DNA from: Pyrinomonadaceae bacterium
GTDB taxonomy: Bacteria; Acidobacteriota; Blastocatellia; Pyrinomonadales; Pyrinomonadaceae
NCBI GenBank assembly: GCA_036387135.1
Contig: DASVUH010000007.1
Span: 2,105-66,104 of the forward strand
Reading direction: 5' to 3'
Length of the DNA: 64,000 nucleotides
Positions 6,421-42,756 of this stretch are shown here, piece by piece (position 1 is the stretch's first letter; each line of letters starts with the position of its first letter). Position numbers and translations under genes: made by a program. A model generated the notes under the pieces. The model had not been told where the DNA came from. It saw only the letters and a program-made list of their open reading frames with translations, and searched no databases.

Positions 6421-7206
6421 ATGATTGCTGAACAGATAAAAATGCACGAGAATTTCGGCTCGCAGTTTTTAAACCATCCGCGCAATGTTTTGGTTTATTT
6501 GCCGCCCGGTTACGGCGTAAACCCGGAAGAGCGTTATCCGGTTTTGTATATGCACGACGGGCAAAATCTGATGAATCCCGAAGACGCTTTCGGCGGCGTC
6601 GCCTGGGGCGCGGACGAAACGGCGCAAAAATTGATTTTGACGGGCGAAATCTCGCCGCTGATTATTGTCGGAATTTACAATACGGGCGGAAAACGAATTG
6701 ACGAATACACGCCGGTCAAAGCCGAGCGCGGCAGAATGAAAGGTCACGGCGGACAGGCGGATCAATACGGGCGAATGATTATCGAAGAATTAAAGCCATT
6801 TATTGATAAAACATATCTGACGCGCACCGAACGCGAATTTACCGGACTCGGCGGTTCGAGCCTCGGCGGTCTGGTTTCGCTTCACCTCGGTTTTAAACGA
6901 CCGGACGTTTTTTCGCGCGTCGCGGCAATCTCGCCCGCCATCTGGTGGGCGAACAATCAAATTATTCGCGAAGCCGCTAAATTGACCGAGCGAATTCCTT
7001 TGCGAATCTGGCTCGACATCGGCAAAAAAGAAGGCGGGCAAATCAAACACCAGGTTCGCGCATTAAAAGAAATGCTGCTCGCGCAGGGCTGGCAATTGGG
7101 CGCGGATTTCGCTTATCAGGAAATTCCCGAAGCGCGCCACAACGAACAAGCCTGGGCGGCGCGTTTCGGCGACGTTTTAAAATTTTTGTATCCGAAATTA
7201 CCTTGA
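6421..7206 (+). CDS. Esterase family protein (PF00756-like putative esterase / enterochelin-esterase-like alpha/beta hydrolase)
   Basis: YPVLYMHDGQNL motif. A GGSSLGG nucleophile elbow-like segment. Length 261 aa. Confidence 0.7.
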   Translation: MIAEQIKMHENFGSQFLNHPRNVLVYLPPGYGVNPEERYPVLYMHDGQNLMNPEDAFGGVAWGADETAQKLILTGEISPLIIVGIYNTGGKRIDEYTPVKAERGRMKGHGGQADQYGRMIIEELKPFIDKTYLTRTEREFTGLGGSSLGGLVSLHLGFKRPDVFSRVAAISPAIWWANNQIIREAAKLTERIPLRIWLDIGKKEGGQIKHQVRALKEMLLAQGWQLGADFAYQEIPEARHNEQAWAARFGDVLKFLYPKLP

Positions 7207-8132
7207 ACGGAGTTTTAATCATAGACAAACCCGAAGGCTTAACGTCGCACGATGTCGTTGGCAGAGCGCGGCGCATTTTAAAAACGCGCAGCGTCGGACA
7301 CACAGGCACGCTCGACCCGTTTGCGACCGGAGTTCTGGTCGTTTTAATCGGCAAAGCGACCAGACTCGCGCAATTTCTCGACAAAGCCGAAAAAGAATAT
7401 CTGGCGACAATCCAATTCGGATATTCAACCGACACGGGCGACAGAACTGGATTGCGGATTGCGGATTGCGGATTGCGGATTGAAGAAATCGCGGCGCGAA
7501 TAACTGCGAGCAATGTTGAAAAAGCCTTAGTCAAGTTTCGCGGAGAAACGCTGCAAACTCCGCCGATGTATTCGGCAAAAAAAGTCGGCGGGAAAAAACT
7601 TTACGAATTGGCTAGAAAAGGCGTGGAAATCGAACGCCAGCCGGTCAAAATCAAAATCTCGGAATTGGAAATTGTCGAAAATTCTGAAAATCAATCCGCA
7701 ATCCGCAATCCGCAATCCGCAATTGTGAGGGTTGTGTGTTCAGCCGGAACTTACATCCGCGTTTTGGCGGAAGACATTGGAAAAGAATTGGAAACGGGCG
7801 CGCATCTGGCGGAGCTTCGCCGGACGCGAGCCGGAAGTTTCGATTTACGCCAAGCCGTGACGCTTGAAGAGCTTGAGAATCTTGCGATTGAAAATCGAAT
7901 CGGAGAAATTAAAATTTCTCCAAACGATGCTCTCGGACATTTTCCGTTCGTTGTTTTAGATGAACTCGGAATAGCCCGGACGCTCAACGGAATGAAAACG
8001 AAAGTTTCCTCAAATTTTAACGACGCAGAGTTTGTTCGTTTGTGCGATGAGAGCGGAAACCTTGTTGCCGTCGGCGTTTTCGATGAACGGGAACAAGTTA
8101 TCCAACCGCGAATTGTTTTCGGCGCGGCTTAA
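7203..8132 (+). CDS. truB: tRNA pseudouridine(55) synthase TruB. The reading frame contains two in-frame heptamer-repeat insertions (features 7449..7482 and 7692..7725).
   Basis: TTG start. Canonical TruB N-terminus GVLIIDKPEGLTSHDVV..GHTGTLDPFATGVL with the catalytic Asp. FRGETLQTPPMYSAKKVGGKKLYELAR motif. C-terminal PUA-like region. Confidence 0.9.
   Translation: MNGVLIIDKPEGLTSHDVVGRARRILKTRSVGHTGTLDPFATGVLVVLIGKATRLAQFLDKAEKEYLATIQFGYSTDTGDRTGLRIADCGLRIEEIAARITASNVEKALVKFRGETLQTPPMYSAKKVGGKKLYELARKGVEIERQPVKIKISELEIVENSENQSAIRNPQSAIVRVVCSAGTYIRVLAEDIGKELETGAHLAELRRTRAGSFDLRQAVTLEELENLAIENRIGEIKISPNDALGHFPFVVLDELGIARTLNGMKTKVSSNFNDAEFVRLCDESGNLVAVGVFDEREQVIQPRIVFGAA
7449..7482. repeat. 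(GGATTGC)n heptanucleotide tandem repeat, ~4.9 copies, in-frame inside truB (encodes GLRIADCGLRI)
   Basis: Perfect tandem copies read directly from the sequence. Confidence 0.9.
7692..7725. repeat. (CAATCCG)n heptanucleotide tandem repeat, the inverted-orientation copy of the repeat at 7449..7482, in-frame inside truB (encodes QSAIRNPQSAI)
   Basis: Reverse complement of GGATTGC repeated ~4.9 times. Lies 210 bp downstream of the first array. Confidence 0.9.
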
Positions 8133-14907: not shown

Positions 14908-15900
14908 ATGACAAAGAAAAACATTCTTTCTGGGTTCCTAGCAATTCTGTGCTTCTTGGCGAGCAATGTGCTTGCCAACGCACAAGAAAAAACTTTAGCC
15001 GCTCAAGCTGCGATTGAAGAAGTCGCAGTTTTCCAGAAATACACGAAAACACTCGCCCTGCCAGAGCGTGACCGGCGCGCGGCGTTTTCTTAAAGCGACG
15101 CGCGAGACAAAGCCGCACTCTGGCGTTTGAATCTTGCCTTATCGCTGGTAGACCGCCAAGATTTGACACTACCGCAGCAAATGGTCGTTGCCGACACAAT
15201 CGCCGCGATCACGCCCGAATCATATAGCAATCCAGACCGTGAAAGCGTCCAGAGAAAAGCAAACGCCAAAATCGAGGCAGCCGCCGCATCCGGCTTTACA
15301 AAGCGGCAAATGGGTGAGATATTTGCAACACTCGCCGCGACGCCGACCAGCTTGCGGACGCTAGAGAATTATCTAGACATCACGCAACTTGTCTGCCCGG
15401 ATAATAAAACTCTCTACCGGACTTTGAGTCTCGACGAAAAAAGCGCACTCTGGCGTTTCCAAGCTGCGCTGTTTCTGGCGACAACGGATTCGCTATCTTC
15501 CGAGCAACGTTCGGCGGTTCTCGAATGGCTCAACTTGATTAGTCCAGAATTGCTCGATAGAGCAGTCAGCGACACGGAATTAGCGAGAAAAGGCAACTTA
15601 ATTAAGGCTGCTGCGTCACGACTTGGTGAGGTTTTCACGCCAGAACAAACGGCGAACATCTCGCTTAAGCTCGGTTTGGTTGCTAATCCAAGAGGAGGTA
15701 GCGCGCGGGCGAATCAGAGAGTAAAAATGATCAAGGCATCCGGCAAAGTAGACTTAAGGGAATGCTCCTGTTCAACTAACAGCGATTGGTGTGCTGTGTG
15801 GGTGTCGCAGCAGTATTGCCATAGCGGTAACTGTACTGGGCTGCCGGACGGCTGTGGCAATCTCGGTTTTTATAGTTGCAACGGTAGTTGCAGTTACTGA
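14908..15900 (+). pseudogene. Secreted protein gene interrupted by an in-frame TAA at 15091-15093. N-terminal signal peptide, two internal ~50-aa repeats (..ALWR[LF]..AL.LA..D..) and a C-terminal Cys-rich module (10 Cys in 47 aa).
   Basis: ORFs 14908..15093 and 15127..15900 share one reading frame. Codons immediately after the stop (SDARDKAALWRLNLALSLVD) are homologous to an internal repeat (LDEKSALWRFQAALFLATTD), so the stop lies inside coding sequence. Confidence 0.45.
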
Positions 15901-16637: not shown

Positions 16638-17234
16638 CTAGGATTTTGATTCGGCGAGCGCGTCGCGTACCCGTTTCATATCTTCCCAAACCTCGCGTTT
16701 TTTCGTCGGATCGCGGAGCAAATAAGCCGGATTAAAAGTCGGCATTATTCGAGCAAAACCGCCGTAATCGTGAAACTCGCCGCGCATCTGCGAAATCGTT
16801 TTTTTCGTCTTCAAAAGAGCTTTGGTCGGAGTCGCGCCGAACGAGATAATTATTTTCGGGCGAACAACGGCGAGTTCTCGATGCAGATACGGAATAAAAA
16901 AGTTTAAGATGTCAGGCGTCAACTCGTCTCCGGCGGAAATATATTTGACGGTATTTGTCAGATAACAATCTTCGCGTTTGAGTCCAATCGAATTCAAAAT
17001 TTTAACCAGCATTTCGCCCGCCGGTCCCATAAACGGACGCCCGCTCGCCGCATCCGGCGCGCCCGGCGATTCGCCGACAACCGCCACGCGCAAACCCGCC
17101 GCGCCTTCGCCGAAAATAAACATTCGACTCTGCAATGCCGGAATCGCTTTAGCCTTTTCGAGCAATTCCTGATTCACTTCGTCAAGCGTTTCGGTCGGCT
17201 GCGTTTCTTCATCTGCAAACAAAAAATTTTGCAT
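16638..17234 (-). CDS. Uracil-DNA glycosylase family 4-like paralog lacking the Fe-S cysteine ligands and with Asn replacing the motif-B His
   Basis: Aligns to the neighbouring canonical UDG4 gene: GESPGAPDAASGRPFMGPAGEML versus GEAPGANEDAEGRPFVGRAGQLL, and FNPAYLLRDP versus FHPAYLLRDP. None of the four Cys residues is conserved. Confidence 0.7.
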   Translation of the reverse strand: MQNFLFADEETQPTETLDEVNQELLEKAKAIPALQSRMFIFGEGAAGLRVAVVGESPGAPDAASGRPFMGPAGEMLVKILNSIGLKREDCYLTNTVKYISAGDELTPDILNFFIPYLHRELAVVRPKIIISFGATPTKALLKTKKTISQMRGEFHDYGGFARIMPTFNPAYLLRDPTKKREVWEDMKRVRDALAESKS

Positions 17235-17244
17235 AACAAAAATT

Positions 17245-17344
17245 TGAACCGCTGAGACGCAGAGACGCCGAGTTTAAGAAAAAGAGTTTGAGACAAAAGA
17301 ATAAAAAATCTTTTCCCGGCGTCTCTGCGTCTCGGCGGTGAAAA
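17245..17344. repeat. MITE-like intergenic repeat, copy A. 17-bp terminal inverted repeats gagacgcagagacgccg / cggcgtctctgcgtctc with an A-rich core, ending ctcggcggtgaaaat.
   Basis: Perfect inverted repeats at 17254-17270 and 17318-17334. The 5-prime flank (ttgaaccgcYgagacgca) and 3-prime end (gcgtctcggcggtgaaaat) are shared with copy B at 28744..28866. Confidence 0.75.
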
Positions 17345-18370
17345 TCACTTTTGCGTCCGAGCAAGTTCGTCGCGCACTTTTTTCATATCTTCCCACGTTT
17401 CCCGCTTTTTCGACGGGTCGCGCAAAAGATAAGCCGGGTGAAAAGTCGGCATCACTTTAATGCCGTAATAATCCTGAAATTTACCGCGAATTTTGGTGAT
17501 TCCTTCTTTCGTGTCAAGCAGATTCTGCGTCGCCGTGTTGCCCATTACAACGATGATTTCGGGGCGCGCGATGGAGATTTCGCGCATTAAAAATTGGCGG
17601 CAGGTTCTGGCTTCCTGAATCGTCGGCGTGCGGTTTTGCGGTGGGCGGCACCGGTTGACGTTGCCGATTAAAACTTCCTCGCGTTTTAAACCGATGGCTT
17701 CGATGATTTTGGTCAAAAGCTGTCCGGCGCGCCCGACAAAGGGGCGTCCCTCGGCGTCTTCGTTCGCGCCCGGCGCTTCGCCGACAAAAAGAATGCGCCC
17801 TGTCCAATTGCCTTCCGTGTGGACGATTTTCGTTCTGCCCTGATAAAGCGGGCAGCGCACGCAATCGCCGATGTCGGCGCGGATTTCCTCGACAGTTTCG
17901 TTCGATTCCGGGAGCGTTGCGGATTCCGGCGTCAGATCGCCAAAAAGTGAACCTTCCATTTTTGTTTCCTCTGATTTTTTTGCAAAATTCTGCGGCGGCG
18001 CGACGTTTATTGGCTCTGCAATTTTTTTTAGAATTTCCGGCGCACTTGATTCTTCCTCGCGCGCTGCAACCGACGGCGAGATTTTCGACAATTTTGTCGC
18101 TTCCAATTTATCGCGGAAAGAATTTAAACGAGGCAGCGGCTTTGTTTGGGGCGCAGCAACAGGTTTCGGCGGCGCGGTTTTGTTCACGGGCGGCACATAA
18201 GCCTGAAAAGCGGGCGGCGCGGCTCTTAAAGTCTGAGGCTGTGTTTCTTCCGTTTTTTCCGCGACAAAATCGGTTTCCAATCCTGCAACGCCCAATTCTT
18301 GCGCAAACGCTAAATGCTCGCGCACGTCCGCAAGCAATTCCAAAAAATCTTCGCGCAAACTTTCAGCCAT
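17345..18370 (-). CDS. Uracil-DNA glycosylase family 4 (4Fe-4S type) with a ~170-aa Pro/Ala-rich low-complexity N-terminal extension
   Basis: C-terminal domain carries CVRCPLY, GEAPGANEDAEGRPFVGRAGQLL, NRCRPP..ARTCRQ (four Cys) and FHPAYLLR. Confidence 0.85.
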   Translation of the reverse strand: MAESLREDFLELLADVREHLAFAQELGVAGLETDFVAEKTEETQPQTLRAAPPAFQAYVPPVNKTAPPKPVAAPQTKPLPRLNSFRDKLEATKLSKISPSVAAREEESSAPEILKKIAEPINVAPPQNFAKKSEETKMEGSLFGDLTPESATLPESNETVEEIRADIGDCVRCPLYQGRTKIVHTEGNWTGRILFVGEAPGANEDAEGRPFVGRAGQLLTKIIEAIGLKREEVLIGNVNRCRPPQNRTPTIQEARTCRQFLMREISIARPEIIVVMGNTATQNLLDTKEGITKIRGKFQDYYGIKVMPTFHPAYLLRDPSKKRETWEDMKKVRDELARTQK

Positions 18371-24155: not shown

Positions 24156-27100
24156 TTACTGTTCCGACACCGATTTCAAATTGTCGTCAGGCTGTCTGTC
24201 CACAAGCAGCGCAAACGGATCAATTCCGGCTTTTTCGGGCAGCTCATCAACAGTAAAAGTAAAAGCGTTTTCCGGTTTGTTAATTTTCACGCGCTCGCGG
24301 TGCAGTGTTTTGCCGTAACGCTTGCCGCTTTCGGGCGCGGCGAATGCGCCGATTTCGATGAAATCATCAATCGGAATTTCCTGTTCCAAGCCCTTTTCAT
24401 CGGCTTTTAATTTTTGCGTCAGCACTTTTATTGTCACGTCGAAACGTCCGTCATCGCGTTTTTTTGCAGTCGCTTCGGTCGTGCGGTTAGCGAACAGCGT
24501 GATGTCCTCGAATAAATCTTTGAGCAGATATTGGAATTCCGGCGGGGTTTGGACTTTGAGCGCGTCAGTCAGCGCGTATGAAGTCGGATACGGCGCTTCT
24601 TTGTAAGCGTGTTTTTGAATGATTTCGCGCAAAGCCGCGTTTACTTTGTCCTCGCCGATCATTTCTTTGAGGTAATACATCACGAGACTGCCTTTGTTGT
24701 AATGAATATAGCCTTGATCGGCTTCGACCGTCTGCAAAGGTTGTTCTTTCATCAATTCGCCGCCGCGCCCGCGCAGGTAAGCGTCGGCTTCGTACTGCAA
24801 AAACTTGCGCATCATATCGCGCCCGTATTCTTTTTCCATCACCATCAGCGCCGTGTATTGCGCCAGCGTTTCCGAAAGCAAAGTCGCGCCCTGCATATTC
24901 GCTCCGCAGACTTGATGCGCCCACCATTGATGCCCGATTTCGTGCGCGACAATATAAGTCGCCATATCAATAGCGTCCGGGGTTTCCAAGTTTGCAATAA
25001 AACCGATGCTTTCGGAATAAGGCATCGAGCCGGGAAAGGCTTGCGCGAAGCTGCCGACGCGCGGAAATTCGATAATGCGAAGCTGCTTGTGTTTGTATTC
25101 GCCGAAATTTGCGGTCGCATATTCGTAAGTTCTGCGGAGCGCATTCATCATTTTCGGCACGTTCCATTCGTGACCTTTGTGGTAATAAACTTCGAGGTTG
25201 ACGCCGTTGACGATTTCGCGCGCGACTTCATAACGCGCCGACAAGAACGAATAAAAATTTAAAGCCTTGTGGTCAAGACGATAATGGAAGTAACGCCGCC
25301 CGTTTTCCGTCCATTCCCGAACGAGCGAGCCGGGCGCAATCGCTGTTTGGTCGGCGGCTGTGCTCATCACGGTTTCGACATTTACCCAATCGGAGTTGTT
25401 CGAGATGTATGTGTTCATACAATTCGTCGTGCAGTCGCGTTCGAGTCGCGGCATCAATTCTTTTTCCGGCAAGCCTTGTCTGCGACGGTCGCCGCGCTCT
25501 TGCAGCTCGGTCCCCGGTTGATAACCGATTTGCGGCGCAATCGTGCTGTTGAAAAACGTCCCATTCGTCATTATTTGTTCCTGCGACAAATCGTTTTCAA
25601 ACCCGCGATTGTTGTATTTCACAGTAAAATTCAATTTTACTGTTTCGTTCGGCTGGAGCGCTGGCGAGAGCGTGTAAATTTGATAGTTTAAGCGTTTGTC
25701 GTCCATTTCGAGCGTGGCGCGTTCAAGCTCAATGTCGGTTTCGAAATTGACTGCGAGGTTTAAATGAACTTTATCAACGGGCGCATCGGTTTTGTTTTGC
25801 AGAATCTCTTCGCCGCGCATCACAAGGTCTCGGCGCTCCGGGAAAAGCTCAATATTGTATTTCACATCAACAATTCGCGGCTGCGGCAGATTCTCGTACT
25901 GTTTAAACTGACGTTCATAATCTGCGGCTTTCTTGTGGCGCTCCGGTCTTGCTTCTACTTTGTTGACGACAAGCGTGTTGTAATAAACCCATCCGCCGAT
26001 ACAGAGAAAACCGAGGAAAAACGCCGCTCCGACGTTGCCGATTGTTCCGCGTAAACTGCGGAAAGCCTGACCAAACCGGTTTTTATAATGTGTTTCGCGA
26101 CCGCGCTGCCACAGCGCAGCCGTTCCAGCCGCGAGCAAGCCGCAGAATAAAAACCAGTACAAACCGAACCAGAGAACTTGCGAAAAGTAAGGCGCGATTC
26201 CGTAAAAATCCGAGTAGGTATAATTTGAAAACGCCGCGAAACGAAGCATTTTCGATTCAAACTCGAAATAATTCGCCGTAAATGCGTTGACCATAAAAAC
26301 GACGACGAAGATAAAATAGCCGACGTATTTGTTCGGCGCGAGCGTGTGCGAGAGCATCGCCAGAATCGCCCAAAAGCCGAAAAATAAAAGCTGAAAAAGA
26401 AAGAAATCGCGCGCGTAAAGTCCGAGCTGAAAATTATAAAAGCCTTTCAAACTTTGAAACGTCACAGCGCACAAAACATCAAGCGCGAGCAAAATCGCGA
26501 CAATTCCCATCAGCGCGGCGAATTTGGCGCAAAACGAAATCCAGGTCGGAAACGGGAGCGCATCGTAAACTTCGTCGAACTTTGCCTCGCGCTCGCGCCA
26601 AATCATTGCGCCGGAAAAAAACGTGATAATTGCAATCAAAAAAAGCGAGGATGAACCGACCAGCAGGTGAATTATTCTGTAGGTAACAGGCAGAGACGAA
26701 ATGCCGTAACCTTCGCCGGTCGAATGATACAAAGTAACCATTACGTCAATGATTGCAAAGAGCGCAATCACGACAAAAACCGTGCTTTTAACAATCGTCC
26801 GGAAATTTATTTTTACTTCGCTCCAAAATCGCGAAAGATTTGTTGTTGCCGTGTCCGTAAGTTGAACCGATGGAATTCGGGCATAATTTTGCGACAAAAT
26901 TTCTTCATCTTTTGCTTTGCCGCGTTTTGTGCGTTCGGTGAAAGTAAAACGCCAGACCGACACCGCGAGAAAAATCGTCCCGATTCCGACCCACAGCAAG
27001 CGATTTGCCAGCATCCAGCCGGTCAATCCGACGCTCAAATTATTTTTGTCGCTCGCCGTCCAGTATTTTGTCACCATGTTGTAAGTGTTGATGCCAAACG

Positions 27101-27731
27101 GGTCAATCATCATCGCCAGAGTTTGATTGTCCAAATCCTGCAACAACTCGCCCGCCAGCGAATAACCGATGAGCAAAGCAAGAGCGCCGACGAATGAAGC
27201 AATCGTGCTGCGCGTCCAGATTGCGATGGCGAAAATTATCGCGCCGACGAGAAAGGTGTTCGGAACCGCGAAAATGAGAATGCTGTTGAGATGCGCCCAA
27301 AAATTATATGCGGTGTAGCGTTCAGGATCGCTCACTCCGGCGATTAATGACGCGAGGACGATGCCGAGACTGACGCCCAAAATCGGAACGACCGCAACAA
27401 TCACCGAGCCGAAAAATCTGCCGAGCAGATAATCCGTTTTGCGAATCGGAGTGGAGAAAATTATTCCCACCGTATCCTGCGTAAACTCGCGCGTCGCCGC
27501 CGAATTGACGAAAGCGGTCGTCATCAGCAGCGTCACGAACGACATCGCCGCGTAAAAATTTTGAATCACAAACGGCGAGTTACGGAAAGTGTTGTCAACG
27601 CCTCCGCCGATTTGAACGTTGTCGCTCGACGTTGCCAGATAAACCAGAAATGTGACGACGGCGAGAAAAACGTAAACCATCAAACGCCGCATCCAATAGC
27701 GAACTTCAAAGCTAAAAAACGTGGTGAACAT
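24156..27731 (-). CDS. Fusion protein: N-terminal ABC-2-type multi-TM permease domain and C-terminal M1 family (aminopeptidase N-like) zinc metallopeptidase domain
   Basis: ~550 aa of repeated hydrophobic helices, then HEIGHQWW..(18 aa)..LSETLAQY, which is the M1 HEXXH-X18-E motif. Stop/start nearly abut the upstream ABC ATPase gene. Confidence 0.8.
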   Translation of the reverse strand: MFTTFFSFEVRYWMRRLMVYVFLAVVTFLVYLATSSDNVQIGGGVDNTFRNSPFVIQNFYAAMSFVTLLMTTAFVNSAATREFTQDTVGIIFSTPIRKTDYLLGRFFGSVIVAVVPILGVSLGIVLASLIAGVSDPERYTAYNFWAHLNSILIFAVPNTFLVGAIIFAIAIWTRSTIASFVGALALLIGYSLAGELLQDLDNQTLAMMIDPFGINTYNMVTKYWTASDKNNLSVGLTGWMLANRLLWVGIGTIFLAVSVWRFTFTERTKRGKAKDEEILSQNYARIPSVQLTDTATTNLSRFWSEVKINFRTIVKSTVFVVIALFAIIDVMVTLYHSTGEGYGISSLPVTYRIIHLLVGSSSLFLIAIITFFSGAMIWREREAKFDEVYDALPFPTWISFCAKFAALMGIVAILLALDVLCAVTFQSLKGFYNFQLGLYARDFFLFQLLFFGFWAILAMLSHTLAPNKYVGYFIFVVVFMVNAFTANYFEFESKMLRFAAFSNYTYSDFYGIAPYFSQVLWFGLYWFLFCGLLAAGTAALWQRGRETHYKNRFGQAFRSLRGTIGNVGAAFFLGFLCIGGWVYYNTLVVNKVEARPERHKKAADYERQFKQYENLPQPRIVDVKYNIELFPERRDLVMRGEEILQNKTDAPVDKVHLNLAVNFETDIELERATLEMDDKRLNYQIYTLSPALQPNETVKLNFTVKYNNRGFENDLSQEQIMTNGTFFNSTIAPQIGYQPGTELQERGDRRRQGLPEKELMPRLERDCTTNCMNTYISNNSDWVNVETVMSTAADQTAIAPGSLVREWTENGRRYFHYRLDHKALNFYSFLSARYEVAREIVNGVNLEVYYHKGHEWNVPKMMNALRRTYEYATANFGEYKHKQLRIIEFPRVGSFAQAFPGSMPYSESIGFIANLETPDAIDMATYIVAHEIGHQWWAHQVCGANMQGATLLSETLAQYTALMVMEKEYGRDMMRKFLQYEADAYLRGRGGELMKEQPLQTVEADQGYIHYNKGSLVMYYLKEMIGEDKVNAALREIIQKHAYKEAPYPTSYALTDALKVQTPPEFQYLLKDLFEDITLFANRTTEATAKKRDDGRFDVTIKVLTQKLKADEKGLEQEIPIDDFIEIGAFAAPESGKRYGKTLHRERVKINKPENAFTFTVDELPEKAGIDPFALLVDRQPDDNLKSVSEQ

Positions 27732-28709
27732 TTAGCTTTCCTCCTCATCTCGTTCGTTTGATTGAGAATCGGTAATTTGCGCGAAGAAAACGTCTTCCAA
27801 ATCCGGTTCGACCGCGCGAAAACCGTCGCCGGGCGCGATGGGACTAAAAATCCGAATAATCGGCTGACCGGCGACGAGCTTGCTCGAAATAATACGAAAC
27901 TGTTTTTGATAATCTTCGAGTTCGCCTTTGCCGATTTGTTTGCGCCAGATTTTGCCGGAGAGCGTTTCGAGCGCGGCGGCTGGCGCGCCCGCATACAAAA
28001 CCCTGCCGTTGTTGATAATCGCCATATTCGTGCAAAGCTCTTTTACGTCTTCAACGATGTGAGTGGAAAGAATGACGATCACGTTTTCGCCGATTTCCGC
28101 GAGCAAATTGTAAAACCGATTGCGTTCGCTCGGATCAAGCCCGGCTGTCGGCTCATCAACGATAATCAAGCGCGGATCGCCGATCAAAGCCTGCGCAATT
28201 CCGAATCGCTGTTTCATTCCGCCCGAAAAACCGCTCAGAGCTTTTTTGCGGTGCTGATAGAGATTAACGCGGTTGAGCAGAGCTTCGACAAGCTGTTTAC
28301 GCTCGGCACGGTCGCGCACCCCTTTTAAAAGCGCCAGATGATCGAGCATCTCGATTGCCGAAACTTTTTGATAGACGCCGAATTCCTGCGGCAGATAACC
28401 GAGGATTTTGCGAACTTCGTGTTTCTGCCGCAAAACATCCAAATCGCCCAAAACCGCCGAACCGCTGTCGGCATCTTGCAGCGTGGCAAGCGTTCGCATC
28501 AGAGTTGATTTTCCCGCGCCGTTTGGACCGAGCAAACCGAACATTCCCGTCGGAATCGTTAAAGAAACGTTGTCGAGCGCCTTAACGCCGTTCGAGTAGG
28601 TTTTCGAGAGATTCTCGATGTGAAGCTCCACCTTTAGTTTTCTCCTTGTTTGAATTTCGGAATGCGGAAAAACGCCAAGCTTATAACATATTTGACCGAA
28701 ACCGCGCAC
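27732..28709 (-). CDS. ABC transporter ATP-binding protein
   Basis: Walker A GPNGAGKST, signature LSGGMKQR and Walker B IIVDEPTAGLD. Confidence 0.9.
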   Translation of the reverse strand: MRGFGQICYKLGVFPHSEIQTRRKLKVELHIENLSKTYSNGVKALDNVSLTIPTGMFGLLGPNGAGKSTLMRTLATLQDADSGSAVLGDLDVLRQKHEVRKILGYLPQEFGVYQKVSAIEMLDHLALLKGVRDRAERKQLVEALLNRVNLYQHRKKALSGFSGGMKQRFGIAQALIGDPRLIIVDEPTAGLDPSERNRFYNLLAEIGENVIVILSTHIVEDVKELCTNMAIINNGRVLYAGAPAAALETLSGKIWRKQIGKGELEDYQKQFRIISSKLVAGQPIIRIFSPIAPGDGFRAVEPDLEDVFFAQITDSQSNERDEEES

Positions 28710-28743
28710 TTTATTTTTAACTTGAATTCAAAGTAATGAAAGT

Positions 28744-28866
28744 TGAACCGCCGAGACGCAAAGACGCAGAGAAAATTAAAGAAAAAAATGAGAAGAATTC
28801 GAGTGAAAAGAAGAAACCTCTCTTCTTTTCCTAAAAATCTCGGCGTCTCGGCGGTGAAAATTTTCT
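28744..28866. repeat. MITE-like intergenic repeat, copy B. Inverted termini ccgccgagacgc / gcgtctcggcgg with an A-rich core, ending ctcggcggtgaaaat.
   Basis: Shares its 5-prime flank and 3-prime end with copy A (17245..17344). Sits in the divergent promoter region between the ABC ATPase and the asparaginase-like gene. Confidence 0.75.
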
Positions 28867-28968
28867 TACCTCAAATTCACCTAATTTTTACGCTCCTCAG
28901 CCCACGAAGTTCGGTTTGATTCTGTTATAATTTGCCGTACATTTCCGAAGGATCTCAACAAGGTATTT

Positions 28969-30063
28969 ATGAGACAAACAATTTCGCTGATCTTAATTGG
29001 AGTTTTGATGATTTTGCCGTTAACAGCTTTCGGGCAAAAAAGCGCCGGACGCGAAGTGAAACAACTGCAATCGCCGCAAAACCCGCCGCTCGGAATCGTG
29101 ATTCACGGCGGCGCGGGCGTGATTACACGCGGGAGTTTGACGCCCGAACAGGAAAAAGAATATCGCGTCACGCTAGAACAAGCCGTTCTAGCGGGTTATA
29201 AAGTTTTGCAAGCTGGCGGAACAAGTCTCGACGCCGTCGAAGCCGCTGTGCGGATTATGGAAGATTCGCCGCTATTTAACGCCGGAAAAGGCGCGGTTTT
29301 TACCAGCGAAGGCACAAACGAGCTGGACGCTTCGATTATGGACGGCAAAACTCTAAAAGCCGGAGCGGTGGCGACTCTGAAACACATCAAAAATCCGATT
29401 TCGCTCGCACGGCTCGTAATGCAAAAATCGCCGCACGTAATGATGATCGGCGAAGGCGCGGAAAAATTCGCACGTGAAAACGGCGTGGAAACTGTTCCGC
29501 AAAGCTACTTTTTCACGCAGCGCCGGTTTGACGCTCTGAAGCGGATTCAGGAAGAAGAAAAGAAAAAAGCGGAAGCCGAAAAAGCGGGCAAAAAAGTTTC
29601 GCTTGTCGAATCAAAAAAAGACGAAAACCGTCACGGCACGGTAGGCGCGGTTGCGGTTGATAAATTCGGCAATCTCGCCGCCGCTACTTCCACCGGCGGA
29701 ATGACGAACAAAAAGTTCGGTCGCGTCGGCGACGCTCCGATTATCGGCGCGGGAACTTATGCCAACAACAATTCCTGCGCTGTGTCGGCAACCGGCTGGG
29801 GTGAATATTTTATTCGCCTGGGCGTCGCGCGCGACATCTCGGCGATAATGGAATATCAGGCAATGCCGATTCAACAAGCGGTTGACGCCGTGATTCAGCG
29901 AAAGCTGCCCGCGCTCGGCAAAATGGACAATGAAGATGCCGACGGCGGCGTGATTGCGATTGATAAATTCGGCAACATCGGCATTTCATTCAACAGCGAA
30001 GGAATGTACCGCGCTTATATTGATATGAACGGCAAACCGGTAGTGCAAATTTATAAGGATTAA
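28969..30063 (+). CDS. Isoaspartyl peptidase / L-asparaginase (Ntn-hydrolase), secreted
   Basis: HGTVGAVAVD autoprocessing Thr region and GGMTNKKFGRVGDAPIIGAGTYA motif. Signal peptide. Confidence 0.85.
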   Translation: MRQTISLILIGVLMILPLTAFGQKSAGREVKQLQSPQNPPLGIVIHGGAGVITRGSLTPEQEKEYRVTLEQAVLAGYKVLQAGGTSLDAVEAAVRIMEDSPLFNAGKGAVFTSEGTNELDASIMDGKTLKAGAVATLKHIKNPISLARLVMQKSPHVMMIGEGAEKFARENGVETVPQSYFFTQRRFDALKRIQEEEKKKAEAEKAGKKVSLVESKKDENRHGTVGAVAVDKFGNLAAATSTGGMTNKKFGRVGDAPIIGAGTYANNNSCAVSATGWGEYFIRLGVARDISAIMEYQAMPIQQAVDAVIQRKLPALGKMDNEDADGGVIAIDKFGNIGISFNSEGMYRAYIDMNGKPVVQIYKD

Positions 30064-39236: not shown

Positions 39237-40409
39237 ATGTTTTCGGACAAGCTCAATTTTACAGAACAGCAAAAACTTAGCGGCGAGACGTTTGACGCAA
39301 TCGTCATCGGCGGCGGCGTAATCGGTTTATCCATTGCGCGCGAACTGAAAAAACGCGGCGTTGGGCGCGTTCTGATTCTCGAAAAAAACGCGCATTGCGG
39401 AGCGGAGGCGTCTAATGCAGCAGCCGGAATGCTCGCGCCGCAAGCGGAAGCCGATTCGGCGGATGATTTTTTCAATCTCTGCCGCCAAAGCCGCGATTTG
39501 TATCCGAATTTCGCCGCCGAACTTCTTAACGATACAAGCATTGACGTTCGGCTCGATCAAACCGGAACGCTTTATCTGGCGTTTGGTGAAAAAGATTTGG
39601 AAGAAATCGAGAAGCGCTTTGCCTGGCAGCGAGCGGCAGATTTGCCGGTGGAAAAAATCAGCCGCGAAGCGGTTTTAGAGCTTGAGCCGAACGTTTCGGA
39701 CAAAGTTTTGGGCGCGCTGCGATTTCCGCTTGATTGGCAGGTCGAAAACCGCGATTTGATTCGCGCGTTGGTTGAATCGGTGCAAAAGCAAAATGTTTTG
39801 CTTAGACGCTCAACTAAAGTCGAAAAGATTTTGTTTGAAAACGGCAAAGCCGTCGGCGTTGCCACAAATGCGAGCGAAATAAGAGCGCAAAACGTGATTG
39901 TCGCGGCGGGAGCGTGGACTCGCGCATTTTCGGAGATGCCTTTTGATTCGTCGCTCGAATCGTTTATTAAGCCGATTCGCGGTCAGATGCTCAGTTTCGC
40001 GTGTCAGGAAAAACCTTTGCGCCATGTCGTTTATTCGGCGCGCGGTTACATTGTTCCGCGCGGCGATAATCGAGTTTTAATCGGCGCGACGGTTGAAGAT
40101 GTCGGTTTTGACAAAAGCATAACGGGCGGAGGTTTGCTTTCTTTGCTGCAAACGGCAGAGGAGATTTCTCCTAAACTCGGCAATTCAACGGTTTCCGAAA
40201 TCTGGGCTGGCTTGCGTCCGGCGAGCCGCGACGATTTGCCGATCATCGGCGAGTTTCCCGAAAATTCCAATTTGTATTTCGCAACCGGGCATTATCGCAA
40301 CGGCATCCTACTTGCGCCTTTGACTGCGCGGCTGATTGCAGACAAAATCGTCGAGGGCAAAAATTCTCCGTTTTTACAAATTTTTAATTTATCTCGTTTT
40401 CAAAGCTAA
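39237..40409 (+). CDS. FAD-dependent oxidoreductase, glycine oxidase ThiO / D-amino-acid oxidase family
   Basis: N-terminal dinucleotide-binding DAIVIGGGVIGLSIARELKKRG. ~390 aa with DAO-family architecture. Confidence 0.7.
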   Translation: MFSDKLNFTEQQKLSGETFDAIVIGGGVIGLSIARELKKRGVGRVLILEKNAHCGAEASNAAAGMLAPQAEADSADDFFNLCRQSRDLYPNFAAELLNDTSIDVRLDQTGTLYLAFGEKDLEEIEKRFAWQRAADLPVEKISREAVLELEPNVSDKVLGALRFPLDWQVENRDLIRALVESVQKQNVLLRRSTKVEKILFENGKAVGVATNASEIRAQNVIVAAGAWTRAFSEMPFDSSLESFIKPIRGQMLSFACQEKPLRHVVYSARGYIVPRGDNRVLIGATVEDVGFDKSITGGGLLSLLQTAEEISPKLGNSTVSEIWAGLRPASRDDLPIIGEFPENSNLYFATGHYRNGILLAPLTARLIADKIVEGKNSPFLQIFNLSRFQS

Positions 40410-40413
40410 ATTT

Positions 40414-41865
40414 ATGACTCGATTTTTCTCCGTCATTTTAATTTTGTGCGTTTCGACAATCGCTTTCGCTCAATCGCGGCGCGTTCCGCCGGTGCGGACA
40501 AATCCAGCCGCGACCGCGCCAAGCGCAACTGCGGAAAATCCGGTTTCTCCCGATGCAAATGAAGCCGCAAAAAACGGAGCGGCGCTTTACGAGGACGCGA
40601 ACACTTACGCGAAGCGCAAGTTTGAAGATTACGAGCGGCGCAAACTTCCTTACAACGACGAATTGCGCCAGACGACTCAGCGCGAACAGCGTCAGCTTGC
40701 CGCTAAATACGCAGCGCAGCTTGCGGCGCAAAATCCGGCGGGCGATGATTTGTATTTTCTCGGAATGCTGCAACTCTTGGCGACAAATACCGACGGCGCG
40801 GGCGAAACGATGAAAAAATATCTCGCTTTGCCGGAAAAAGACGGCGAAAAAGCGCAAACCGCGCGCTCGATTGCCGCCGTTACAGCCGCGCGCCGCAAGA
40901 ATTTCGATGACGCCGAAGCGCTCTTAAAAGAATATTTGAAAAACGCGCCCGTCAAAGTCGCGGAGCGCGTTTTGATTGAAAGCGAAATGGCGGAAAACTA
41001 TATCGCCGCCAGACAACAAGAACGCGCCGCGTTTCACGCCGAATCTGCGCTGCTTGCCGCCAAACCCGCGCTTTCCGATCCCGGTTCCAACAAACGGCTC
41101 GTCAAAGACGTTTACGAATTGGCGATGAAGTTGTTTGAAATTCACGCCGCAGCGGGCGCGAAACAAAAAGCCGAAACGGTTTTGGAAAATCTGCGCGAAA
41201 CCGGCGCGCACGTCAATCAGCCGGATTTATACTGGCTGGCAACCGATAAATTAGTTGCGTTTTTGATTGAAACAGGGCGCAAGCCGGAAGCTCTGCAAAA
41301 AGTGAAAACCACAAAGGACGGGCTTGATACGGCGTTTCGAGACCCCGGATCGCGCGCCAAAATTCTCGCTTTTTTAAGAAAACGCGAGCCGCAATACAAA
41401 TTGCTCGGCGAAGCTGCGCCGGAACTGGCGGCAGATAAATGGCTGGGCGAAATCGGCGCCTCGTCGCTCGCCGGTTTGCGCGGCAAAGTCGTGCTTTTGG
41501 ATTTTTGGGCGCATTGGTGCGAGCCTTGCTACGCGGCTTTCCCGAATCTTTCCGAATGGCACAAAACTTATTCCGGTCAAGGCTTTGAAATCGTCGGCGT
41601 CACCCGTTATTACGGCTCGGCTGAAGGTTTCGGCGCGGATGCCGACACGGAATTCGCGTTTTTGCAAAAAATCAAACGCAACCAGCGTTTGCCTTACCCG
41701 TTCGCCATTGCAAAAGGACTCGTTAATCACAACCGTTTTTCGGTCGAAAGCCTGCCGACCGGAATTTTAATTGATAAAAAAGGCGTCGTTCGCTACATCA
41801 GCACCGGCTCAAATCACGCCGGCGAGGAAATGGAAAACTCGATTAAAAAACTGCTCTCCGAGTAG
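40414..41865 (+). CDS. Secreted TlpA/ResA-like thiol:disulfide oxidoreductase (thioredoxin fold, WCEPC active site) with an N-terminal TPR-like helical domain
   Basis: Signal peptide. LLDFWAHWCEPCYAAFP CxxC motif in the C-terminal ~150 aa. Start taken at ATG 40414. Confidence 0.75.
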   Translation: MTRFFSVILILCVSTIAFAQSRRVPPVRTNPAATAPSATAENPVSPDANEAAKNGAALYEDANTYAKRKFEDYERRKLPYNDELRQTTQREQRQLAAKYAAQLAAQNPAGDDLYFLGMLQLLATNTDGAGETMKKYLALPEKDGEKAQTARSIAAVTAARRKNFDDAEALLKEYLKNAPVKVAERVLIESEMAENYIAARQQERAAFHAESALLAAKPALSDPGSNKRLVKDVYELAMKLFEIHAAAGAKQKAETVLENLRETGAHVNQPDLYWLATDKLVAFLIETGRKPEALQKVKTTKDGLDTAFRDPGSRAKILAFLRKREPQYKLLGEAAPELAADKWLGEIGASSLAGLRGKVVLLDFWAHWCEPCYAAFPNLSEWHKTYSGQGFEIVGVTRYYGSAEGFGADADTEFAFLQKIKRNQRLPYPFAIAKGLVNHNRFSVESLPTGILIDKKGVVRYISTGSNHAGEEMENSIKKLLSE

Positions 41866-41955
41866 CGGAGAACTGAGAATGAAGAACGGAAAACCGATAA
41901 GAAAATTCAACTATTATCGGTTCTCCGTTCTCAGTTTTACGTTCTCAGTTTTCTT

Positions 41956-42756
41956 TTATTTTGTCGGTTTAGCGAATTTGGCGTCGTCAATCGTCACGTT
42001 CGATTTGATTTCATCAGTTTTAATGGTAAAACCGCCGGAAGCCGCATCCACACGCATCGTGTACGGCATTAGAACTCCTTCAAATTTTCGATAGTCCGAT
42101 AGAAAGGTCTGCACGGGAGTTTTTCCCTGTGGCGTCACGGCAATTTGGTCAACGCGCACGAGCAAATTCGTTTTCTGATCGAAATAATAAGTTTGCGAAA
42201 CGTCGCCCGCCGTCATCACAACGGCGTAAGCGTCACTACCTTCAATTTTTTCGATGCCTTTGGTTTCGCGTTTCGGAAACAATTCTTTGAGTCGGGCGAA
42301 TCTGTAAAAGTCCGAATCGAGCTTGGTTTGCACCAATTCTTCTGCGGTTTTTTCGCGCGTACCCTGAATCGGATCGGTCGCCCAAGCCTTGCTGCCGTCA
42401 AAAATCTCCGTCATCTGCCCAAAACCCGGAATGTTGATAAAAACCGCCAATTTATTCGGCGCTTTTTGAAAGCTCTCATAAGTTCCTTTGACTCCCGCCG
42501 CCGGAATTTCCATCGTGCCTTTGACGTGATAACTGTTCGCTTTTTTGTAAGCGGCTTCGCCGCCGGTCGCTGCGACGAATTTGTCAATAATTTCGTCGGC
42601 TTTCGGAAGAGCCGCAATTGTCGAAGGCGCTTTAGTTTCGGTTTTCGGTGCAGGCGTTGAAGATTTGGCGGGCGCGGCGGTTTGCTGCGCGCTCGCATTG
42701 ACGGAGGCAAATAAAATCAATGCGAAAACGGCTGTTAAATTTTTAAAGTTTTTCAT
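41956..42756 (-). CDS. Hypothetical secreted protein (possibly LolA-like lipoprotein-sorting fold)
   Basis: Signal peptide with a Pro/Ala/Thr-rich linker. The fold assignment is a guess from size and composition. Confidence 0.4.
   Translation of the reverse strand: MKNFKNLTAVFALILFASVNASAQQTAAPAKSSTPAPKTETKAPSTIAALPKADEIIDKFVAATGGEAAYKKANSYHVKGTMEIPAAGVKGTYESFQKAPNKLAVFINIPGFGQMTEIFDGSKAWATDPIQGTREKTAEELVQTKLDSDFYRFARLKELFPKRETKGIEKIEGSDAYAVVMTAGDVSQTYYFDQKTNLLVRVDQIAVTPQGKTPVQTFLSDYRKFEGVLMPYTMRVDAASGGFTIKTDEIKSNVTIDDAKFAKPTK

Follow-up and report, generated by a model that had tools for sequence, protein, structure and literature searches.

Copies A and B are two short repeats in a 64,000-nt stretch of a metagenome-assembled genome (MAG) from a Pyrinomonadaceae bacterium of the phylum Acidobacteriota (contig DASVUH010000007.1, forward-strand positions 2,105 to 66,104; hereafter, the window). 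Copy A lies between two minus-strand UDG genes, and copy B lies between divergent genes for an ABC ATPase and an isoaspartyl peptidase/asparaginase; both are intergenic, as the original prediction, made from the letters alone, had proposed. The window contains no rRNA, and both copies sit between protein-coding genes. We found that both are hairpins whose arms are tandem arrays of 8-9-nt units, that such arms recur in MAGs of many phyla, that they are associated with small genes of the GxxExxY family, and that the elements at the window's own sites turn over rapidly among relatives. Their parts, numbered from the first letter of the window, are as follows.

Copy A, 17243..17345: whole element, 103 nt, filling the spacer between the two minus-strand UDG genes; delimited by its hairpin and by arm-pattern match
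Copy A left arm, 17243..17272, plus strand: TTTGAACC, then GCTGAG-AC, GCAGAG-AC and GCCGAG; read directly
Copy A left-arm units, 17251-17256, 17259-17264 and 17267-17272, plus strand: GCTGAG, GCAGAG and GCCGAG
Copy A core, 17273..17314: 42 nt, A+T-rich, purine-rich on the plus strand, with a small inner hairpin AAAAGA/TCTTTT
Copy A right arm, 17315..17345, plus strand: CCCGGC-GT, CTCTGC-GT and CTCGGC, then GGTGAAAAT; complements the left arm
Copy B, 28743..28861: whole element, 119 nt, between the ABC ATPase gene (minus strand) and the isoaspartyl peptidase/asparaginase gene (plus strand, ATG at 28969), which diverge
Copy B left arm, 28743..28771, plus strand: TTGAACC, then GCCGAG-AC, GCAAAG-AC and GCAGAG; one mismatch to the arm pattern
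Copy B core, 28772..28838: 67 nt, with an inner perfect 10-bp hairpin, GAAAAGAAGA (28805-28814) / TCTTCTTTTC (28821-28830)
Copy B right arm, 28839..28861, plus strand: CTCGGC-GT and CTCGGC, then GGTGAAAAT; two units only

Each arm is thus built of TT(G/C)AACC and two or three tandem 8-nt GCNGAG-AC units, with the complement of this design at the other end of the element; copy A carries 3+3 units and copy B 3+2, and in both the arms converge. The gap that holds copy A is bounded by the ATG of the 198-aa UDG gene (17234) and by the stop codon of the 341-aa UDG gene (17345-17347, minus strand), which the final base of the right arm overlaps. The sequence of copy A is identical in two independent metagenome assemblies (loci L001 and L002).

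The two copies are present where the original prediction had placed them, with bounds refined here to 17243-17345 (A) and 28743-28861 (B), and the identical 3′ end that it described is a 19-nt sequence, GCGTCTCGGCGGTGAAAAT, found exactly twice in the window (17327-17345 and 28843-28861). Each occurrence has an inverted partner with three mismatches at the opposite end of its element, giving 4 matches against 0.06 expected, a number that none of the shuffles reached (0/100). Searching with the 5′ motif recovered the same four sites, and a 21-nt arm pattern, ACCGCNGAGACGCNGAGACGC, allowed up to 3 mismatches, found only the four arms of copies A and B in the 64 kb (0.01 expected), with zero mismatches in the left arm of copy A. 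The ends had been described as perfect terminal inverted repeats (TIRs) of 12 to 17 bp. They are indeed inverted, but the length and the plain form do not hold: copy A has 29-nt arms that are 90% complementary (17242-17270 / 17317-17345), copy B has a 42-nt inverted repeat that is 76% complementary around a perfect 13-bp terminal core, and both are really arrays of 8-9-nt units, whose 8-nt period had been missed. In copy B, perfect pairing with the left arm is limited to the outer 13 bp because the right arm has only two units. Similarly, the A/G-rich core said to be shared by the copies is common to them in composition and not in sequence. Among the cores of A, B, and six related copies there is no alignable similarity beyond A+T and purine richness, and the mean column identity of 77% obtained on alignment is due to the arms.

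Folding, which had been suggested as a check, predicts long stable hairpins of −54 kcal/mol (z = −10) for copy A and −43 kcal/mol (z = −5.6) for copy B, about equally stable on either strand. No Rfam release 15 covariance model matched at its gathering score across the window, the best sub-threshold hits being microRNA precursor hairpins (at most 33 bits against cut-offs of 58 to 211), and consensus scans found neither a sigma-70-like promoter nor a T-tract terminator at copy A or copy B. The expectation that the window holds no transposase was borne out. Open reading frames (ORFs) of 51 and 58 aa traverse the elements (17209-17364, minus strand; 28743-28919, plus strand), with products such as MNRRDAKTQRKLKKK...LGVSAVKIF; these are translated repeat and should not be called genes. 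We also considered and rejected an intrinsic Rho-independent terminator (no terminator-like site at either copy and no enrichment between convergent genes), a Shine-Dalgarno mimic GGCGGTGA masked by TCACCGCC (neither right arm in the window is followed by a start codon), and an ECF-sigma promoter of the form GAAC...CGTC (the two boxes stand in the wrong relative orientation).

The arm family and its turnover

One genome per species was scanned for the end motif GCGTCTCRGCGGTKMAA; at least 118 stretches matched, and their 8-kb loci were examined. By our own arithmetic, a 17-mer with 8 variants is expected to yield several hundred random matches in 596 Gb, and some of the listed loci are evidently of this kind (Streptomyces, Prevotella). 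Among the matches listed, complete two-armed elements are present in 52 loci and a well-formed single arm in many more. According to the MAG labels, under which mis-binned contigs are possible, the arm loci belong to at least seven phyla, chiefly Acidobacteriota (Terriglobales, Bryobacteraceae, Pyrinomonadaceae, and Chloracidobacterium), Chloroflexota, and Planctomycetota, with other labels from Verrucomicrobiota, Bacteroidota/Chlorobi, Elusimicrobia, and delta- and gamma-proteobacteria. The conserved ends therefore do recur far outside the window, in many MAGs, as the original prediction required. It had also named a similarity confined to a short GC-rich palindrome as grounds for its own refutation, and on this point the outcome goes against it, the similarity being restricted to the arms.

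The arms define an element. The 938 kb of arm-selected DNA contain 107 forward and 111 reverse two-unit arms, and of the pairs less than 300 nt apart, 58 converge (GAG side first, CTC side second) and 3 diverge, which argues for a defined element and not for scattered motifs. The general formula of an arm is TTNACC-(GCNGAGNN)n: TTNACC precedes 2-4 tandem units of 8-9 nt, each made up of GCNGAG and a spacer of 2-3 nt, and the far end of the element carries the complement. The number of units per arm ranges from 1 to 5 and is often unequal between the two arms, with five on one side in L082. Between the arms lies either a short, nonconserved, A+T-rich core of 40 to 200 nt or one small GxxExxY gene, and the spacing from arm to arm is bimodal, with 84 pairs below 200 nt and 62 pairs at 400 to 700 nt. 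Viral contigs gave 23 exact matches to the end motif, about six of them with real arms, and a link to phages is not clear. Searching the literature with sequence words of the element returned only unrelated primer and aptamer matches. In some Acidobacteriota spacers, lone arms stand among other repeats (L029, 150-260; L112, 6530-6700; L212, 1100-1480), including palindromes of the type GGGTG-CCCACTCAAGCC...GGCTTGAGTGGG, classed as repetitive extragenic palindromes (REPs), and "GTCATTCTGAGCG"; these mixtures are mosaics reminiscent of bacterial interspersed mosaic elements.

The site of copy A could be followed across nine Pyrinomonadaceae relatives, ranked by the identity of their 198-aa UDG protein, and it shows eight different states in them.

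Window, 100% identity: GCNGAG hairpin
L201, 92%: 126-aa ORF after a degenerate left arm
L207, 91%: GCNGAG hairpin whose core differs; a weak similarity hints at the opposite orientation
L202, 87%: ACAGAG-type hairpin
L203/L204, 84%: 144-aa ORF, no arms
L210, 84%: two small ORFs
L205/L206, 83%: (GGTCTTTG)4-loop-(CAAAGACC)4 hairpin
L212, 79%: a single ACAGAG left arm together with other repeats
L214, 73%: 44-nt spacer, no arms

These inserts always extend from the stop codon to a few bases before the next ATG, and the junction is a hot spot for small accessory inserts in general, not for hairpins alone. The junction ORFs, of 100 to 144 aa (L201, 2088-2468; L203, 2061-2495; L210, 696-998 and 1128-1496; orthologous to window positions 17235-17344), match no Pfam family above cut-off. 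At the site of copy B, none of three relatives (L216, L219, and L218) has the hairpin: in L216 and L219, whose asparaginases are 89% and 79% identical to that of the window, a squalene/phytoene synthase gene (SQS_PSY) abuts the asparaginase gene, and L218 has a different neighbor gene. L216 and L219 also lack a 4.6-kb module (window 24156-28709, minus strand) that encodes the ABC ATPase and a 1191-aa fusion of an ABC-2 permease with an M1 peptidase; a 4.6-kb insertion or rearrangement has therefore taken place in the window lineage, with copy B at its right junction. Both copies are thus polymorphic for presence and absence at their sites.

Association of the arms with GxxExxY genes

When all long ORFs of the 118 arm-selected loci were clustered, without bias toward any gene, the only small ORF family recurring beside the arms was a protein of ∼125 aa that scores 154 bits against TIGR04256 (GxxExxY protein) and 148 bits against PF13366 (PDDEXK_3). 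The gene stands exactly between a left and a right arm in L118 and L058, between arms of a different unit, CACGAAAN, in L087, and, in L116, after a complete gene-less hairpin, with another right arm following. Downstream of the gene in L116 (2600-2910), three tandem copies of ∼105 nt each end in a complete right arm (2691, 2798, and 2903), which suggests local duplication of arm-containing segments.

The same association is seen from the side of the gene. Of 80 metagenome loci picked by the GxxExxY peptide motif alone, 75 had enough flank to be testable, and in 58 of these the 200 nt upstream and the 200 nt downstream of the gene form an inverted repeat, compared to 2 after shuffling (median score, 44 compared to 16.6). 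By eye, nearly all of these flank repeats are arrays of 8-9-nt units ending in TTCACC.../...GGTGAA. The unit differs across lineages (GCNGAG, ACNGAG, AGTGAG, GCAAAG, and ACGAAG) and is uniform within a cassette: with the arm type called independently on each side, the sides agreed at 49 of 54 loci, where permutations gave 24 on average and 35 at most. Gene-less hairpins on cassette contigs match the unit type of the cassette in 4/4 cases, and L146 contains a GxxExxY gene between arms with unit and spacer identical to those of the window copies. In the long-spacing class (400 to 700 nt), every cargo ORF is GxxExxY, 78 of those 80 loci having been selected for that gene; in the arm-selected loci, gene-less elements outnumber gene-bearing ones 64:2 (∼30-fold).

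The GxxExxY cassettes tend to follow the direction of their neighbors, being co-oriented with the upstream gene in 49 of 57 cases and with the downstream gene in 33 of 47, and the cassette gene usually starts a few nucleotides past the stop codon of the host gene. Two sites recur: one follows a gene for a class II aminoacyl-tRNA synthetase, and the other lies between MoxR-like and DUF58-like genes. At the latter, L139, L141, L147, L164, and L189 carry a second, inner inverted pair (e.g., AAAGTCAAAACCCGAGAGCACGGAGG...) inside the octamer arms, so that the stem has two layers. With 24,275 clusters at 50% identity (E ≤ 0.001), the GxxExxY proteins form a very large family; full-text literature searches on GxxExxY, PDDEXK_3, or PDDEXK together with inverted repeats found nothing on flanking repeats.

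Weighing the explanations

The data above show that the two copies belong to the arm family, how the arms are built, that the arms are tightly associated with GxxExxY genes, that gene-less forms are in excess, and that orthologous sites turn over rapidly. Taken together, they lead us to favor, at a probability of roughly 55%, the reading that A and B represent the gene-less form of cassettes with octamer-array arms, a family that crosses phyla, and are relatives of a selfish cassette. The short hairpins would be non-autonomous relatives of that cassette, comparable in population terms to miniature inverted-repeat transposable elements (MITEs) or to REPINs, the inverted REP doublets; their excess over the gene-bearing form is the numerical relation expected of a non-autonomous derivative. 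Under the cassette-family reading, hairpins would be gained, lost, replaced, and perhaps inverted at intergenic sites. When co-transcribed with their neighbors, the arms may anneal to each other as a long, imperfect stem and so leave the insert looped out of the RNA, by analogy with intervening sequences (IVSs) of rRNA, and such looping-out would explain why genomes tolerate inserts in the gap from a stop codon to the start codon that follows. The fixed GC-GAG with its free N, the free spacers, and the same unit type in both arms suggest that a protein recognizes the arrays by their sequence. We speculate that the encoded GxxExxY nuclease, the obvious candidate, reads the 8-nt arrays and takes part in the spread or exchange of the elements. 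A more far-reaching proposal, which we hold only tentatively and consider rather doubtful, is that arms and GxxExxY genes make up an unrecognized class of selfish element in which the nuclease reads the units and moves, inverts, or exchanges the cassette, or excises it from RNA in the manner of an intron or IVS, with the hairpins as passengers.

Several observations weigh against the cassette-family reading. On the protein side, tblastn found no GxxExxY gene in the window, nor is there one in its MAG as far as that is visible. A profile search (hmmsearch) of the six-frame translations of 87 gene-less cores found no coding remnant of the gene (best E-value, 1.8), which speaks against an origin of the short forms by deletion. 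In the sample picked by the GxxExxY motif, identity to the query is nowhere below 53%, and the sample covers relatives within that range only. The literature gives no experimental tie of GxxExxY proteins to a nucleic-acid substrate, no solved structure is related to the protein by sequence, and an AlphaFold model built from a shallow alignment (80 to 92% identical) reached a pLDDT of 50, too poor for use. On the DNA side, well-formed arms often stand alone in Terriglobales, with no partner, and the cores are unrelated between copies, unlike those of MITE copies descended from a master element. Among the 87 gene-less elements, direct repeats at the borders have a mode of 2 nt compared to 1 nt in controls, with a freedom of ±4 nt in setting the boundary. 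Finally, the variable N of GCNGAG is no more complementary between arms than expected from base frequencies (0.46, 0.29, and 0.41 observed compared to 0.42, 0.29, and 0.36). It follows that mismatches occur regularly along the stem and that selection cannot be acting on pairing alone; by the same token, the fixed bases are conserved as sequence.

The most serious rival holds that the elements are host-beneficial, REP-like intercistronic RNAs that stabilize, process, or terminate the flanking mRNAs and are kept by selection. Its attraction lies in the very stable folds on both strands, in the precise fit of copy A between two co-transcribed genes, in the persistence of Terriglobales elements across species upstream of the same gene (L005, L006, L031, and L076), and in the co-orientation of GxxExxY cassettes with the upstream gene, which implies that the arms are transcribed. 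We nevertheless consider it unlikely. Gene-less elements are distributed over tandem, convergent, and divergent spacers (32:12:7) much like the background (197:74:70), so that 3′ ends are not favored; scans for a T-tract terminator and a promoter consensus were negative at both window copies, and copy B stands in a divergent promoter region. Close relatives lack the element, or carry another one, at the same sites, and a conserved sequence with a free, mismatched N is unlike a purely structural RNA. No Rfam family matches.

Alternatively, the palindromes could be generated locally, with units expanding in place through slippage or template switching and the arms homogenized by intramolecular recombination, all without transposition. 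This explanation accommodates the varying and often unequal unit numbers (1 to 5, with the five on one side in L082), the presence of GCNGAG, ACAGAG, and CAAAGACC units at the same orthologous site in related genomes, the tandem 105-nt duplications of L116, each with a right-arm end, and the occurrence of another inverted tandem-array pair, of a 7-nt unit, in the truB gene of the window. It becomes distinctly improbable in view of the TTNACC end and GCNGAG unit that recur in MAGs of many phyla, which slippage would not repeat, of the tight tie of the arms to one gene family, and of their strict convergence (58 compared to 3), which requires a defined element.

A classical MITE mobilized in trans by an insertion sequence (IS) of the DDE type with the same TIRs would account for the TIRs, small size, intergenic site, and presence/absence polymorphism, and yet we give it very little credence, since there is neither a target-site duplication of fixed length nor a common internal sequence, in the 118 arm-selected 8-kb loci the ORFs enclosed by arms are only GxxExxY and no transposase-like family recurs beside the arms, and arms made of 8-nt-unit arrays are unlike known IS ends. 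Nor would recent copies of a master MITE be expected to have a variable unit position that fails to covary between the arms. The "MITE-like" label of the original prediction is accordingly partly right in population terms, as these are dispersed, noncoding inverted-repeat elements with conserved ends, site polymorphism, and a longer gene-bearing form, and wrong in the defining details of duplication, conserved core, and known transposase. The target-site duplication that it proposed to look for, of fixed length, is found in none of the 87 gene-less elements, and the TGAA that flanks CCGC...GCGG in both window copies belongs to the terminal palindrome in other copies.

Equally hard to credit is a REPIN-type doublet mobilized by a RAYT or Y1 HUH transposase, including the class 3 TnpA_Y1 group, which has been reported in Acidobacteria and Planctomycetes with a "CnGA" foot (PMC6006769): the doublet-hairpin architecture, the occurrence of single arms, the high copy numbers, the overlap in taxa with class 3, and a CNGA within GCNGAG speak for it, but the class 3 structures in the supplement are CAGAGCCGCGACCGTAAGGGAGCGG-like, a different repeat, the arms have no GTAG/CGTC tag and are not individually palindromic, and tblastn with an approximate IS200 TnpA query gave nothing better than E = 0.27 in the 1.4 Mb of loci. 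The class 3 structure itself, a CnGA foot plus a hairpin of the CCGCGACCGT-NA-GGGAGCGG type, was set aside as a candidate, its sequences differing from the arms; REP and TIRYT repeats were likewise considered and rejected on comparing the published sequences. Nor are the elements canonical REPs, the other possibility that the original prediction had raised, given the missing tag, the arms that are not palindromic one by one, and the lack of a credible Y1 transposase hit in the 1.4 Mb with the approximate query. None of these four rivals fits better than the cassette-family reading.

The GxxExxY/PDDEXK_3 proteins form a very large family without a known function, and the finding that they are wrapped in arms provides a concrete hypothesis and a testable substrate, the 8-nt arrays; if true, the more far-reaching proposal above would assign a role to a family of ∼24,000 clusters at 50% identity. 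The finding also explains an annotation nuisance, in that gene callers run ORFs through the arms and produce peptides such as "NRRDAETQRK..." and "LGVSAVK," and many GxxExxY proteins in databases carry N-terminal extensions that are translated arms. Moreover, our comparison identifies a small hot spot between two UDG genes at which short cassettes and hairpins turn over among close relatives. Should the elements be mobile, they would add miniature mobile DNA of a new kind to three phyla with poorly catalogued repeats, Acidobacteriota, Chloroflexota, and Planctomycetota.

Some other features of the window deserve mention. The truB gene (7203-8132, plus strand) contains a perfect 33-nt inverted repeat (7451-7483 / 7691-7723) made of (ATTGCGG)4 and (CCGCAAT)4; these arrays are separated by 207 nt, are in frame, are translated as GLRIADCGLRI and NQSAIRNPQSAI, bracket a conserved core segment, and have an identical sequence in both independent assemblies. 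They share the inverted-tandem-array design of copies A and B and differ in their unit and intragenic location. An imperfect hairpin at 41866-41953, with 33-nt arms rich in GAGAAC/GTTCTC that are 79% complementary and are followed by a T-rich tract, sits between convergent genes (40336-41865, plus strand; 41956-42756, minus strand) and looks like an ordinary bidirectional terminator. Lastly, a 257-aa ORF (15127-15900, plus strand) has a cysteine-rich tail (...CSCSTNSDWCAVWVSQQYCHSGNCTGLPDGCGNLGFYSCNGSCSY) that might be a secreted or modified peptide domain.

Comparison with known systems

We place these elements among the palindromic intergenic elements (REP/REPIN, MITE, and IVS), with a candidate protein partner that is apparently undescribed. 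In architecture, the closest described systems are the IVSs of 23S rRNA. In both, a stem of inverted ends encloses a short loop or one small ORF (∼120 aa), and IVSs, too, are regarded as selfish, are co-transcribed with host RNA, and are looped out by the pairing of their ends. In Coxiella burnetii, for instance, the ends of the IVS form a 28-bp stem that encloses a small ORF, and RNase III cuts the element out (PMC4990558). On the other hand, IVSs reside in helix 25 or 45 of 23S rRNA and our elements between protein-coding genes, the IVS ORF encodes a four-helix-bundle protein (PF05635) in place of GxxExxY, and the cleavage by RNase III shown for IVSs would extend to our elements only by analogy. 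Cargo of the four-helix-bundle (23S IVS protein) type was not found in the fetched loci by tblastn with two approximate consensus queries.

The REP/REPIN system and its RAYT partner (Di Nocera 2013, PMC3733652; Quentin 2018, PMC6006769) resemble the present family in that both consist of abundant intergenic repeats, occurring as singletons and as inverted doublets that form long hairpins, and in that both include a small nuclease-type gene flanked by the same repeats, with a repeat type that covaries with the gene. The differences are equally clear: here, the arms begin with TTNACC and bear none of the GTAG/CGTC tags that stand unpaired at the foot of the 20-40-nt REP palindromes (CGTC appears only inside paired units, as GCGTCTC), each arm is a tandem array and not a palindrome, and the partner gene is of the PD-(D/E)XK and not the HUH-Y1 type. 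REPs and REPINs are also usually specific to a species or genus, whereas the arm consensus spans phyla.

Bacterial MITEs such as RUP, Correia/NEMIS, Nezha, and ERIC share with our elements the length of 100 to 130 nt, the TIRs, the intergenic position, the co-transcription, the insertion polymorphism, and the excess over a coding form. In contrast, the elements described here have no target-site duplication, no conserved internal sequence, and no known transposase, and their ends are modular, being composed of 8-nt units. A gene-bearing form with the same ends does exist, but its product is an uncharacterized protein of the PD-(D/E)XK family and not a known transposase.

Finally, integron cassettes are likewise promoterless single-gene cassettes in the sense orientation, with imperfect palindromes that contain unpaired positions and with hot spots whose cassettes differ from one related genome to the next. 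The R′′/R′ boxes of attC (RYYYAAC/GTTRRRY) are not matched by the ends TTTGAACC and GGTGAAAAT/GGTTCAAAT, and no integrase occurs among the ORF families that recur near the elements. Moreover, the attC hairpin stands beside its ORF and the cassettes are arrayed, whereas in the present family the hairpin encloses the ORF and the elements are found scattered.

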